This document shows, piece by piece, positions 5,340-41,749 of a stretch of 64,000 bases of DNA. The translations under genes were made by a program, and so were the position numbers. Position 1 is the first letter of the stretch. The number at the start of each line of letters is the position of its first letter. The stretch is from Eledone cirrhosa (taxonomy: Eukaryota), in NCBI GenBank assembly GCA_964016885.1, contig OZ024740.1:363692001-363756000 (forward strand), given 5' to 3'. The notes under the pieces are model-generated. The model did not search any database. It saw only the letters and a list, made by a program, of their open reading frames with translations, and was not told where the DNA came from.

Positions 5340-6230
5340 TTTTTAAAAGAGAGGATATTTGTTGAAACTGTTTATAAACTTTTGGCAGAATTTCTTTCTG
5401 AAGACTGAGAAAAATATAGAGAAACTTTTTGTGAGACTTTTTTGTGAAATGTTTTCGAAAACATTTTGAAATAATTTAAAAGAAACTTTGATAGAAAATA
5501 TTTTCAAATTTTGAATAATTTGGATTGAAATTTTTGAGAAACATTTAAAGAAAATTTATGATGAAATTTTCAATAAACATTTTCCTCAAAATTTTAAAAA
5601 TATATTCTTGAATATTTACCTTAAAATTTTATTAAAATATCTTCGAAAATTCTCACCGAAAATTCTCACAATGTTTTACACAAAATTTTCACAAAATTTT
5701 CATAAAGATTTTCCTAAATTGAGGAAAGAAATTTCACCAAAATTTTATTAAATATTCCCTCAAAATTATTTACATTTTAGCATAATTTTCTTAGAAGTTT
5801 TACTGAAACTTTTCTCGAAAGTTTTCTGAAATATATCATCTAAATTTTTCCTGAAAGACTTAATGAAAAATTTTCCTTGAAAGCGTTTTTCAAAAATTAT
5901 TCAAAACTTTCCTTAAAGTTTTTCAAAATTTTTGAAACATCTACATCGAAATTATCTTTCAAATATTTTCATCACTTTTGTTTTTTTTAGTTTCCTCAAA
6001 ATGTTTTCTCAAAATTTTCCTCAAATTTCTCAAAATCTTTCTGGGTATGAGTACAAGATAGTTTGACAATGAAACTTATCGATGGAGTCCCAACATTCCT
6101 GGAACTTTTTGAGCATTGGGATACATTTCTCAAAATTATTTGAAAAAATATTTTGAAAAAATTCATCAAAATTTTATAAATTTTTCAAAAATCCTTATTT
6201 CTTGAAAACTTTGTGAAAATTTTGAGCTCA
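5340..6230. repeat. AT-rich low-complexity array of degenerate AAAATTTTC/GAAAATTTT units
   Basis: Dense short A- and T-tract motifs whose orientation switches near 5570 and 6050. Confidence 0.6.
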
Positions 6231-8960: not shown

Positions 8961-9665
8961 CGCCACTATAAAAATGTATTAATACAATTTCATATAGAAT
9001 CATATGACTTCATTCTGATTTCAAACATTTTTAGAAATTTAGTGACCTTAGGTAGTTTGTAGAGTCTTTTGAGATGTTTTTCTTTTGATGGGAATTCAGA
9101 ACGTTTGTTTCATAAAATACTCTAATCGATATTAACTCTTAACATTCAGTAAGGATTTAGCAGAAAATATCTTTAAAAAAAGAGGTTTGTTAATTCAAAT
9201 GATTACAGTATATTTACTCTGGGACAGGTGTAGCAAATTTGCTTTTTTTCTCCCAGGGAAATGATGGTTTTAAAGATAAAGATTATATAAAGAAATGTAA
9301 TTGAATAAAAAATAACAATTATTTTATGAAAATTAAATTTGATTGGCTTGCAGCCTATCTCCTGAGAAATAAATACAAAACAGCTTGTTTTAAAATGTAT
9401 ATTAAAACTTCAGCAGTCTCAGATGGGTTGTTATCAAAAGAGTTAATAATGAGAAATGTAGATATACTGTTAAATCCATCCAATTTTTTGATTATTTAAA
9501 ACGTTATTTGAAAGCAGTGTTTTTCACTATAAATATGGTAATGAAAGGGTTAAAATGAACAGCTTGGTATTGTAGAAGCAGGGGCAGTTTCATTTGGTTT
9601 GAATTGAGAAGTGTCAACTTAATGCAATCATTACTTATTAACTGCTTTCTTCTTATCTTTGAAAG

Positions 9666-9817
9666 GTCATTATATGTATGTAAGTGCAATGGAAGGAACA
9701 TTGACAGCAACTTCATCTCTTATAAGTCCACTTTACCAAGATACTGACAGCGTTTGTCTTCAGTTTTATTACCATATGTATGGAGATGGAATTGGTACCT
9801 TGGATATCTATACACAG
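9666..9817 (+). CDS. MAM gene exon 4 (MAM2; phase 1-0)
   Basis: gaaag|GT...CAG|gttagt; GHYMYVSA..LISPLY..VCLQFYYHMYGDGIGTL. Confidence 0.92.
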
Positions 9818-11441
9818 GTTAGTTACACACTTTTATATTTTAGCTTGTACTGTTACTTATATCGTTCTTCCCTCAGGATGGTTTCAGCCAGCTTCCTCCA
9901 TATCATAAACAAAACTCACCCATGCATAGCAATCACAGGTGTCTAACACAACTATTGTCAGCTAGTCACAGTTGCAACAGTGGTCACCTTATATAGTTCA
10001 AGATCCATCTTGATTGTGCCAACTATACACATTGTCATTTATGTTATTATGGGTGGCAGGGTATGTAATAAACTGAGTAGGAGTTGTTTGAGGCAATCAA
10101 TTTGATAGCAACGATGAATTTTGGAGTTTGGCACACTTTTATACTTTATCAGTATACAACAATTCTCTCTGTGGGTCCTAACTCCCAATGGAGTTGTAGG
10201 AAAACAATTGTTATATATGGAGTTTGAACAGAGTTCATTTCTTCCAGAAAAAATAGACTTAGAAAATGGAAGAATTAATCTCTGTACTGAACTGGTACTT
10301 TATTTATTGACCCCCTATATGATGAAAAGCAAAGATAACCTAGGCAAGATTTGAACTACGAGTACAGGGAGTTGGAACAAATGCTGCAAAACATTTTAGC
10401 CAATGTTCTAAAGGCTCTGCCAATTTGCTGCCATACAACAAATACACAAGTTAAAATGAAATTGCAAGGAAAATATATTCTAGATATATAAACTGTATCA
10501 TCATCATTATCATCATTATCATCATCATTTAACATCTGTTCATCCATGCTAACATGGGTTGGAAAGGTCATCACAGACGAAATCAGTACTTAATTGGCGT
10601 TACTGACTTCCAGTACTTTATAGAGTGTACTGTTTGCATTTTAGTCTGGCACCAGCACTAGAGAGGTCGTCATATGCTTAGCCAGACTGGAGAGCTATCT
10701 CTGCTCAATATTGTCTCTGTTCGATTGTCAACCATTCTACAGATTGAACCAGGTGCACTCCATCATAGGATTAAGTTTATCATATCATATAATAGATTGT
10801 CCTTTGTTTGTATCAAGTACATTATATTGCTTTTGACAAAGTTCTCAAAAGTAAGAGACTGTATAAAATATATATAATATTTACAAATTATCCTTCAGCT
10901 ATCAATTTCATATATACAAAGAAATAGAGTCATATATGTAGGCATATACAATATTTATATATAATAAACAAACCTATTCTTGTTGTGAGTATTTTAAGCT
11001 GTGATCAGCTACCTCTATAACCATATGACAATGTCAAATACATGCATTTTGAGATTGTTAATCCATTATCAGTGATGCTTAGTTACCCAGTTAAGGAAGC
11101 TAATGCCTTTTATTTATAGATCTTATAAATAATATATTTTTGATGATAGCTTATTTCCGTACAGTCTGAGTTTGATGATTAATTATTTAGCAGTAGCATA
11201 ATATATTATTAATTAGCAGTAGAACTAACAGGCATATATGCTACCATATACATCTCTATTCTGAAATGAAATATATATACATATGTATTAGAATTGGTTC
11301 TCTGAAATAGCGATGTATACATGAATGTATATATAGTATATTTGGCAATATACCGTATGTTTAATTAAAAACATTTAGAAGATCATACGCTATCAGTTTT
11401 AAAGTAGTGACTATGTCACTTACTTGTTTTCGGCAAAAGAA

Positions 11442-11502
11442 GGGAGAGAAGCTGACAGTCTGTTTCACACTGGTTCGCGTTCATCAGAGCCATGTACTCC
11501 CC
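11442..11502 (-). ncRNA. Type I minimal hammerhead ribozyme motif (family H1, intact)
   Basis: Minus strand reads GGGGAGUACAU-GGCU-CUGAUGA-ACGC-GAACCA-GUGU-GAAA-CAG-A-CUG-UC-AGCU-UCUCUCCC: full core, stems I, II and III, GUC triplet. Confidence 0.8.
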
Positions 11503-11885
11503 TGCTTTCACCAAAAATTTTAGAAGCTGGATTCTTATAGAATTCCAGTAATAATCAGGAGCTGATTATGCAGAGCGATTGCCAGTCCGTGGCTCTGATG
11601 AATGCCAACCAGTGTGAAACAGACTGTCTCCCTTATTTCGCTGAAAAGAAATAAGTGACATAGCCACTACTTTAAAACCGATAGCGTATGGTCTTCTAAA
11701 TGTTTTAATTAAACATACGATATATTGCCAATATATTACACAAACATTCATGTATACATCGCTATTTCAGAGCACCAATCTTAATACCTAATTTTTGCTG
11801 GACCGGCAATTTCTCTGCATAATCAGCTTCTGATTATTACTGGAATTCTATAAGCATCCAACTTCTATAATTTTTGTCGAAAGCA

Positions 11886-11947
11886 GGGGAGTACATGGCT
11901 CTGATGAACCCAAACCAGCGTGAAACAGACTGTCAGCTTCTATCCCT
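11886..11947 (+). ncRNA. Type I hammerhead motif (family H1; C-C mismatch in stem II)
   Basis: GGCU-CUGAUGA-ACCC-AAACCA-GCGU-GAAA-CAGACUG-UC-AGCU. A further copy 306 nt upstream (11591-11632) lacks the 3' arm of stem I. Confidence 0.72.
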
Positions 11948-12857
11948 TCTTTCGCCGGAAAGAAGTAAGTGACATAGTCACTACTTTAAAACTGATAGCG
12001 TATGGTCTTCTAAATGTTTTTAATTAAACATACGGTATATTGCCAAATATATTACACAAATATTCATATATATATATATAAATATGAAAGTGTATCTTCG
12101 TGGTTAGAGAGTTGGATGTGAGTTTCATTCTTGGACTGAGTGATGTGTTGTTTCCTTGAGTAAGACACTTTATTTCACATTGCTCTACTTTATTCAGCTG
12201 TAGAAATGAGTTGCATCATAACTGGTGCCAAACTGTATTGGCCTTTGCCTTTCCTTTGAATGATATTGGTGGTGTGGAGAGAGGAAGCTAGTATGCATGG
12301 GCGACTTGTGGTCTTCCACAAAAACACCTTGCCTAGGGTTGTTCCTTGGAGGGGAAGTTTCTAGGTACAAATCCCATGGTCATTCATGACCGAAGAGGGT
12401 TTTATATATATCTTGTTTACACTCTTAATTTTCGATTATTTTTCTTTACTTGGACTACCTTTATTTTTGTATCTCCTATGTGATCCTGTCTCTAATTTTG
12501 TACCACTGAAGAAAGGCTAAAGCCCAGCACGTCCAACTTTCTTTCCCCTTTTCCATATAAAACATGAAACTAATAAGACGTTTTGTACCTCTGTTTGTTG
12601 TCTCCTTGAACTTTATATATATATATATATTTATATATATATAGAGAGAGAGATATGTGTATCCCGAGTTCAATCAGGGGTAGCCACAGTAAGTAAGGTA
12701 CTCAATACAGAGTAGAGTATAGAATATTTTATATAGAAATGGCTTCTACAGGACTAGAACTGTTTCATTCGAAGGAAATCATCAGGAAAGCTTTCCTATG
12801 AAGCCGTTTCTATATTAAACAATATATATATATGTTATATAAATCTATCTTTCACAG

Positions 12858-15845: not shown

Positions 15846-16861
15846 GTATTTTTTCTTTTTTTCAATTACAAAAAAGTAATATCAGGACAATGTTTCAGGG
15901 ATTCCTTTCAGATTTATGTTTAAATATATTATTCCACTCTGTGTTATATCTGATGATTTTAGTTGATGTATTTGTGTAGTAGCTGTGATATTATCAGCTT
16001 ACATTCTATTTACATAAATTATCAAAAGATAACAATTTGATGAAAGAAAATAATCAAATATAAAGAAAAATAAAGAAAAAACAAAAATAAAAAGAAGGAA
16101 GAAGCTATGTATACTGAATTACAAGCTCCAATATGAGGTGCTAGTGTTTCTAATAATTTTTGAGGCAAGCCAATGCATAGCATTACCTCAGTTGATAGTA
16201 GGTTACTTAATTACACACAAAAACAAGGAATGTTGGTATTTTCCCCCTAAATATAAGTGAGGAAAGCCAAGAGACTTGTGGCATTGCCACAGGTGATAGT
16301 GAGGCTAAGGAACTGGAATAACCAATCACCCTTATGAGTATCACTTGATTCAATAGTATGGCCTGATGATTGTGAGGCAAATAAGCAAGCACTCTCATGA
16401 GCATCCCTTGATATGTCAGTAACGTGAGCCCACCAACAATGACAAGAACCTTGCTGTCACTGCCCAAGCTCCCCCAGATATCTCAAATACCACAGCCTTG
16501 AAAAATATTTTACCTAAAAAAAATATATATTTTGAAAAATTGGACTTTCACCTGAGTGTATACGGTATGCATTTATACAAGTGTATATACAGCATGTGTG
16601 TCTGCAAGAGTATATATGATTTTTATGTCTGTACATGATATGTGTCTATATATGAGTATATACAGCATGTGTGTATACATGAATATTTATGAATATATAT
16701 GGTATGTGTATATACATGGTTATATACATAATGGTCTATACATTATATATGAGGTATATGTATATACATGGATATATACAGTATGTATATATACATAGAT
16801 ATATATGGACATGTCATAAGTATATATGGTGTGTACTTAAATAATTTAATATTTATTTCAG

Positions 16862-17020
16862 GTTACTACCAATATATTAAATCATCAAAAGGAACTAATT
16901 CTGGCCGAGCCTGGTTAGCTAGCCCTCTATTCCAACCACTGACAACTGACATGTGTTTGCAGTTTTGGTTTACTATCAATGGGAACGACACAACAAGACT
17001 GTCAGTAGTAACTGTTGCAG
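16862..17020 (+). CDS. MAM gene exon 8 (MAM3; phase 1-1)
   Basis: tttcag|GT...GCAG|gtttgt; GYYQYIKS..RAWLASPLF..MCLQFWF. Confidence 0.9.
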
Positions 17021-40718: not shown

Positions 40719-41509
40719 CATTTTTTTATCATATAGGAATGACTAATTTGTATTTGTTGAACTATATTACCTTAAGTATTATTTCACACTATTACAGCAT
40801 ACTAGATTGTTAAAGATTTAATATAAACAGTTTAAAATAACTTAGTTTTGTGATATTATTTGAAATGAATTACTGTATATACAAGAATATAAGTCACTAT
40901 CCCTATTTTTTGGCAGTGAAATGGGCAAAAATCCAAACCCTGCTTATGAGCCATGGCAGCTAATCAACACATTACAGCAATGTTTAGAAATTCTCATGAA
41001 TAGAGGAAATAAAATAATAAGTGTCGTTTAGAGTATAGTTTTTGTTTCCACTACAGAATAGAGATATATTTTTTAGTTTTAGGCATTATTTTAGAAAATA
41101 TAGATTTACTGTAATGGAGATCATTAAACGCACTAGGGGGAGATAGAAATGAACAGGGAATAGTTGAAAGCGATCAACTAAGAGAACACTGTATAAGGAT
41201 TCAGAGTAGAAGGGGGAGGAAGAAACAGCAAGCGAAAGAGCGGAGAGGCAGAGTGAGAAAAAGAGAGGCGGAGGGTGAGAGAAATAAAACAAAGCAAGAT
41301 TGAAAGAAAAGGTTTAGGTATGAATTTATGTATAGTATTTATGTATGTATCTATACATACATTCATACATACATGGCTATTTCAGAGCACTGATACTAAT
41401 TCCTAATTTTTGCTGGACCAGAAACTGCTCTGTTTATTCAGCTCTTATACATCACTGGAATTTTATAAGAATCCAGCTTCTATAAGTCTTGGCAGAAGTA
41501 AAAGGATAT

Positions 41510-41554
41510 GCAATCTTGATAACCACTAACGAGCGAGAAACAGCTGTTGGTTGC
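41510..41554 (+). ncRNA. Hammerhead motif with U3-A8 core variant (diverged family H1 copy)
   Basis: GCAAUC-UUGAUAA-CCACUAACGAGCGA-GAAA-CAGCUG-UU-GGUUGC: 6-bp stem I, palindromic stem III, weak stem II. Lies at the homologous position of a unit related to 11590-12068. Confidence 0.6.
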
Positions 41555-41676
41555 TTCCCTTTGTTTTTGCCGAGACTAAGTAAGTGACATAGTCACTACT
41601 TTAAAACTCATAGCGAATGGTATTCAAAATGTTTTTTATTAAACATACAGTATATTATCAAATATACTATACATAC

Positions 41677-41749
<73 letters not shown>

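Follow-up and report, generated by a model that had tools for sequence, protein, structure and literature searches.

A decayed head-to-head hammerhead repeat in Eledone cirrhosa as a likely non-autonomous Penelope-like insertion

Short hammerhead repeats of animal genomes are known as non-LTR retrozymes, and the available portions of the report that describes them include an example from mussel and propose that Penelope elements mobilise such RNAs (PMC7229834). Support for this proposal came from vertebrates, whose retrozymes were tied to Penelope pLTRs through co-occurrence and pLTR phylogeny (10.64898/2026.07.22.740005). The accessible text of that study samples no mollusc and reports cleavage of one in nine Xenopus dimers. 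For the giant squid, the accessible part of one paper counts hammerhead matches (PMC6962438).

Penelope insertions themselves have a published anatomy. As the available text of PMC8557442 and PMC3846280 sets out, a partial tandem is combined with an inverted 5'-truncated copy and a tail of 30-40 bp. In vitro work, in the available portion of PMC11167929, shows a Penelope protein cutting and extending both strands. It begins synthesis at two internal sites, which define the tail, and can use uncleaved RNA; between the strands no difference in start site was seen. A search of the literature, with most subscription papers and Repbase lying outside its coverage, found no prior description of the Eledone family presented here or of an end-pairing count.

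The locus lies in a window of 64,000 nucleotides of Eledone cirrhosa DNA (OZ024740.1, forward strand, 363,692,001 to 363,756,000; positions below are counted from the first letter of the window). The locus (11270..12080 with its TA-rich flanks; Table 1) represents one old and damaged insertion. The inserted repeat is non-coding, has a 316-nt unit, and contains a predicted type I hammerhead. Read from left to right, and with units numbered from u1 = 11760, a minus arm with its tail is followed by a 5-nt overlap, a partial and then a full plus unit, and (TA)n. The plus array amounts to about 1.55 units (u131-316 followed by u1-309/316), and the inverted arms 11313-11588 and 11800-12075 are 91% complementary over 276 nt.

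Table 1. Features of the locus and related features elsewhere in the window (11,270..12,080 and beyond)
Feature	Position	Strand	Basis
TA-rich target DNA, left side, without clear target-site duplication	11270..11284	.	sequence
28-nt tail (u1-28), 3' end at family site b	11285..11312	-	
Inverted 5'-truncated arm (u41-316), 91% identical to the full plus copy	11313..11588	-	
Head-to-head junction, 5-nt overlap (microhomology)	11584..11588	.	
Partial unit u131-316, upstream portion of the partial tandem	11584..11759	+	
Full unit, 3' end at family site a (about u309; merges into TA to 12075)	11760..12068	+	
(TA)n target DNA, right side	12069..12080	.	sequence
Predicted type I hammerhead, extended helix I; core 11487-11481, predicted cut after 11454	11422..11520	-	
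Broken hammerhead 1; core and GUC (11626-11628) kept, helix I 3' strand deleted (8 nt)	11595..11628	+	
Hammerhead 2; core 11901-11907, predicted cut after 11934; C-C mismatch in helix II	11868..11966	+	
Second family copy, subfamily D (U3-A8 core), 78% identical to the unit, ends in (TA)n	41376..41690	+	
MAM-domain exon upstream (host gene context)	9659..9820	+	
MAM-domain exon downstream (host gene context)	16858..17016	+	

An earlier note on this DNA had recognised CTGATGA cores on the plus strand at 11595 and 11901, 306 nt apart, and on the minus strand at 11487..11481, all of which were confirmed. It had read the plus copies as a tandem of a unit of about 310 nt. The repeat is genuine, as an internal 24-mer has 2,079 exact matches in the genome and its reversed control has none, but the unit measures 316 nt and the array falls short of a full dimer. 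The closer spacing of the cores arises because the first plus copy carries one 8-nt deletion and two 1-nt deletions. The minus copy had been taken for one circular permutation of the unit. As a description this holds, for the copy spans 304 of the 316 nt; yet its parts are a 5'-truncated arm and a short tail that ends at a site used throughout the family.

No open frame of at least 120 aa overlaps the locus, which therefore lacks the RT and GIY-YIG coding capacity of an autonomous Penelope element. No target-site duplication was seen at the locus, and a search for an empty paralogous site from which one might be read found none. The mean divergence of subfamily A copies from the column mode is 4.5%, and the three window copies diverge by 3.9, 7.1, and 5.1%, which indicates that the insertion is old. 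There are no rare variants common to the three copies at this locus.

Because exons encoding MAM domains lie on both sides, the insertion probably sits in an intron of a large multi-MAM gene. Plus-strand MAM-domain exons continue across 363.47-364.07 Mb of C1, and those in the window (at 1775, 9659, 16858, 22640, 33835, 36596, 43817, and 52600) point to a very large plus-strand multi-MAM gene or cluster. This region bears signs of internal segmental duplication, including exon pairs with identical scores. To the left of the locus, an older dispersed repeat lies at 10922-11200 (376 candidates at 70-75% identity); it is also found in close tandem and inverted pairs, and a profile search ruled it out as a relative of the 316-nt unit. 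A very high-copy repeat fragment, with contig depth far above that of the unit, lies directly to the right (12119-12210). Further CTGANGA...GAAA motifs are found in the window at 5398, 12785 (-), 38185 (-), and 56168 (-), the last of which resembles the minimal hammerhead of two other loci (L145 and L218).

The minus-strand hammerhead is the sole copy in the window that passes a strict test of helices I and II, and it runs antisense to the surrounding MAM exons. Cleavage at successive GUC sites had been expected to release a monomer of about 310 nt. The predicted structures make such release from this locus unlikely, because helix I has lost its 3' strand at site 1, helix II contains a C-C mismatch at site 2, and the ribozymes are predicted to become buried through the inversion. 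Since the 8-nt deletion falls directly after the first GUC, hammerhead 1 is unable to close helix I. Read-through RNA is predicted to form a 276-bp hairpin of -455.6 kcal/mol in which the ribozymes are hidden. Even for the best copy by itself, nearest-neighbour folding puts the active helices I and III near zero, and the monomer is predicted to prefer an inactive rod. The two consecutive units with complete ribozymes that mark a retrozyme as active are absent from the locus and occur at 4 of 211 loci. Rfam returned no match over the window at the gathering score; a sub-threshold match to Hammerhead_HH9 lies at 11883-11956 (15.1 bits, E 1.7), and miRNA matches at the locus, far under the gathering score, were dismissed as the long hairpin. 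In itself the locus is an ordinary decayed copy, and probably a dead one.

Five subfamilies (A, A2 with GUU, B, C, and D) can be aligned across the hammerhead motif, and at the family level the core CUGANGA / GAAA / NUH is present together with helices I, II, and III. Over 37 rows, 91.2% of cells are paired in the type I structure, compared with 47-53% in slid controls, and 22 of 35 pairs show two-sided change; these figures count sequences rather than events, the independent events being few across about five subfamilies, and the structure was drawn from the same sequences. The tertiary 3-8 pair is CG in 29 rows, UA in 7, and UG in 1. Subfamilies C and D bear U3-A8 (7 of the 37 rows), and the pattern of a U3-A8 subfamily has 110 exact matches. 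U3-A8 is a known active covariation of C3-G8, according to the available text of PMC4209133 and PMC3088659. On this alignment the hammerhead helices are kept through compensatory changes that include a C3-G8 to U3-A8 switch in the core, and the covariation supports the original recognition of a hammerhead repeat. Helix III is short and near-palindromic, a type that the accessible literature reports to function as dimers.

The genome searched comprises 3.0 Gb in 1,796 contigs. For a map of insertion ends, the first 100 of the 24-mer matches were merged and duplicates dropped, which left 83 unselected loci; segmental duplicates (L112, L116, and L206) and loci present twice were removed before counting. 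Among the 93 runs at these loci, 78 have their 3' ends at two canonical sites about 30 nt apart, 49 at site a (u290-314, merging into TA) and 29 at site b (u18-38, mostly 27), with the other 15 elsewhere. The 5' ends spread across the unit. Spurious 5'-end pile-ups at u191, u200, and u143 arose when other subfamilies were aligned to a single reference, and they vanished with a profile. Collecting copies and plotting their ends had been suggested as a check, and the result is not the picture of a MITE with fixed ends, TIRs, and TSDs.

Variation is limited to the 5' ends, the 3' ends being fixed at sites a and b, and the copies are thus not random circular permutations. This means that differently permuted copies, which the earlier note had offered as evidence for a circular or concatemeric RNA template, do not provide it. 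The template it proposed is favoured on other grounds. More than one unit is present in 26 of the 93 runs, and 64 of 78 runs cross the ribozyme cut (u175/176), where 5' ends show no pile-up (4 of 78 within u172-180). The template was therefore not a cleaved linear monomer, and was presumably a circle or an uncut multimeric RNA.

Dinucleotide repeats follow the end of the run in 51 of 96 runs, TA in 43 of 96 (raw counts). The longest array seen, 7.2 units of subfamily B (L268/L271, G000:C4:169.09 Mb), consists of units 79-92% mutually alike; three evenly spaced copies on C10 proved to be a segmental duplication and no large element. The family has the structure of a non-LTR retrozyme (a non-coding unit whose 316 nt lie inside the 150-450 nt of that class, low GC, and tandem copies) and also the insertion features of Penelope elements, namely a fixed 3' end with an optional tail, 5' truncation, and AT-rich or microsatellite targets. 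The locus adds the partial tandem with an adjoining inverted 5'-truncated copy. On these sequence features, the family would be a member of the known non-LTR retrozyme or non-autonomous Penelope class, with predicted cleavage.

Head-to-head arms are found at 49 of the 83 unselected loci. Over all loci examined there are 74 head-to-head pairs, and 33 with at least one non-canonical end were excluded from the pairing count. The 41 pairs with two canonical ends combine a with b in 38 cases and a with a in 3; none combines b with b. Independence would give an expected a+b share of 0.50 (p 4e-9). Unselected loci alone yield the same pattern (24 a+b, 1 a+a, 0 b+b; n = 25). Arm polarity is not fixed: in 22 of 37 pairs the tail is on the shorter arm (p 0.32). 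The 68 junctions comprise 29 overlaps of 1-6 nt, 4 longer overlaps, 6 blunt joints, and 29 gaps, these gaps being in part an alignment effect in other subfamilies. Rare non-CpG variants are common to both arms in 9 of 21 same-locus pairs and in 576 of 8,573 pairs between loci (p 4e-6), and tandem units share them in 3 of 8; this test was run within subfamily A, the all-subfamily version being inflated by subfamily alleles. A simple test of arm identity was weak, with 11 of 30 pairs beating the best outside copy. The end map and the junctions, together with the anatomy given in the accessible text of PMC8557442 and PMC3846280, bear out the suggestion that the inverted junction is a Penelope-type 5' inversion.

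The locus is very probably an old insertion of a likely non-autonomous Penelope-like retroelement, a non-LTR retrozyme, copied in trans by a Penelope RT/GIY-YIG protein. Such a protein would cleave a (TA)n site on its two strands, after which both DNA ends would prime cDNA synthesis on an RNA that was circular or an uncut multimer, site a serving as the start for one end and site b for the other. Joining of the resulting 5'-truncated cDNAs, often via short microhomology, would yield the arm and tail on one side and the 1.55-unit run on the other. At multimeric source loci the hammerhead would likely have served the family as a means of producing monomers or circles, probably acting as a dimer or aided by protein.

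We infer that the two DNA ends use sites a and b in a coupled manner; in vitro, the strands were alike in their start site. Tentatively, and with somewhat less than even confidence, we propose that Penelope integration couples its two RT start sites, with each end of a doubly cut target DNA using one of them on a single RNA that is circular or multimeric, and that head-to-head insertions are the products of such two-ended priming. The retrozyme family would then carry this signature, and so would directly show that Penelope proteins move animal retrozymes.

The inversions might instead arise by fold-back self-priming of a single cDNA (or from an antisense template), after which the endonuclease trims the tail of one arm. 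Fold-back has been proposed for Penelope inversions in the available text of PMC3846280, and that of PMC8557442 speaks of 'EN-mediated resolution'; the idea accounts for the microhomology, the variants shared by arms, and the single tail per pair. It is at odds with the ability of purified Penelope protein to cut and extend both strands with two start sites, as given in the accessible part of PMC11167929. Nor does it sit easily with the lack of fixed polarity in the 37 pairs, or with the short arm at our locus, which bears a tail absent from the end of the long arm. We regard fold-back as unlikely, but as an account that deserves to be taken seriously.

Three other accounts are far less probable than these. 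The unit could be a SINE-like passenger of an RTE or L1-type LINE, inverted through twin priming. Fragments that we take to be of LINE-like RTs are frequent in the window, which counts for this account, and fixed 3' ends with variable 5' ends suit any target-primed element. Twin priming gives non-overlapping arms, whereas here one 3' region is common to both arms, whose ends lie at a and b; in addition, there is no poly(A) tail, and runs exceed one unit. We consider it very improbable. A DNA element has slimmer prospects still, whether it is taken as a MITE bounded by terminal inverted repeats or as a rolling-circle passenger of Helitron type. Inverted loci appear bounded by TIRs, targets are AT, and site b resembles the CTRR before T with which Helitrons end; but 34 of the 83 loci have no head-to-head arm, the 5' ends are unfixed, two alternative 3' ends are used, one per arm, and covariation at the RNA level extends to the tertiary 3-8 pair. 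The end map largely refutes a DNA element. It is just as hard to credit that the inversions were made after insertion by DNA repair or are artefacts of assembly, as the short palindromes inside the unit and the fragile TA-rich flanks might suggest. The arms are 91% alike rather than identical, the a+b rule speaks against such origins, and contigs from three runs of one sample, which may be the assembly's own, contain the opposite-strand joint 11581/11800 and cross the left junction.

RT and GIY-YIG elements are abundant in the genome (10,597 GIY-YIG candidates), and intact ones exist, also ending in (TA)n. An autonomous partner did not emerge among the loci compared: no sequence linked to the unit was found in 50 of these GIY-YIG loci, and no flanks common to family copies point to an ORF. 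One young Penelope-like family (e.g., G000:C1:147,233,776-147,243,642, L292-L321) has 69 scored copies with 98-100% protein identity. Its members mostly have a 775-aa open frame (RT and GIY-YIG) and show 4.2-kb tandems, head-to-head pairs, a minimal hammerhead, and (TA)n ends, and the family was likely active recently. The unit has no similarity to it at 30 loci. Because the 17 ends taken from 30 loci of this family comprise 15 site-a-like ends, 2 read-throughs, and no tail ends, it provides no positive control for the a+b rule. Elsewhere, an RT and GIY-YIG element with a 938-aa open frame lies between 1.07-kb direct repeats (L208:4309-7122, minus strand); a motif scan of this element found no canonical hammerhead. 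Unrelated hammerhead-like motifs near GIY-YIG loci (L214:103 (-), L215:7986 (+), L130, L210, L218, and L224) suggest that the genome holds further ribozyme-bearing families.

In the available text of PMC7229834 and 10.64898/2026.07.22.740005, no mapping of insertion ends, tails, or inversions was found; the earlier case for a link between retrozymes and Penelope was made there without insertion signatures, and the Eledone family supplies these in bulk. The rule of one tail per pair (38 of 41), in the absence of fixed arm polarity, is the number that separates two-ended priming from fold-back, formerly a matter of qualitative remark. With a template of 316 nt, the two can be tested against each other in the existing in vitro system.

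As far as the accessible text of the cited papers goes, the Eledone family resembles metazoan non-LTR retrozymes (Cervera and de la Pena 2020, PMC7229834; Li et al. 2026, 10.64898/2026.07.22.740005) in its non-coding unit (170-400 nt in those), low GC, canonical type I hammerhead, tandem copies, and co-occurring Penelope elements. Unlike them, it consists mostly of dispersed insertions of 0.3-1.9 units, is known here from genomic copies alone, and has two adjacent intact ribozymes at only those 4 loci. With EN+ Penelope-like elements it shares the partial tandem and adjoining inverted 5'-truncated copy, a tail of about 30 bp at one end, AT-rich or microsatellite targets, and 3' ends that lie 135-170 nt past the hammerhead cut (available portions of PMC8557442, PMC3846280, and PMC11167929); it differs in having no ORF and in bearing a full helix II and long helix I rather than a minimal hammerhead. 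Non-autonomous Chlamys elements such as MRC1 are likewise short Penelope passengers that do not code for protein and that have pLTRs and copies arranged head to tail, but in the available text of PMC8557442 they lack canonical hammerheads and have 3' ends in common with known autonomous families. The U3-A8 hammerheads of S. mansoni PLEs, as presented in the accessible parts of PMC4209133 and PMC3088659, exhibit the same C3-G8 to U3-A8 core covariation, whereas the Eledone family contains both cores inside one alignable 316-nt family.
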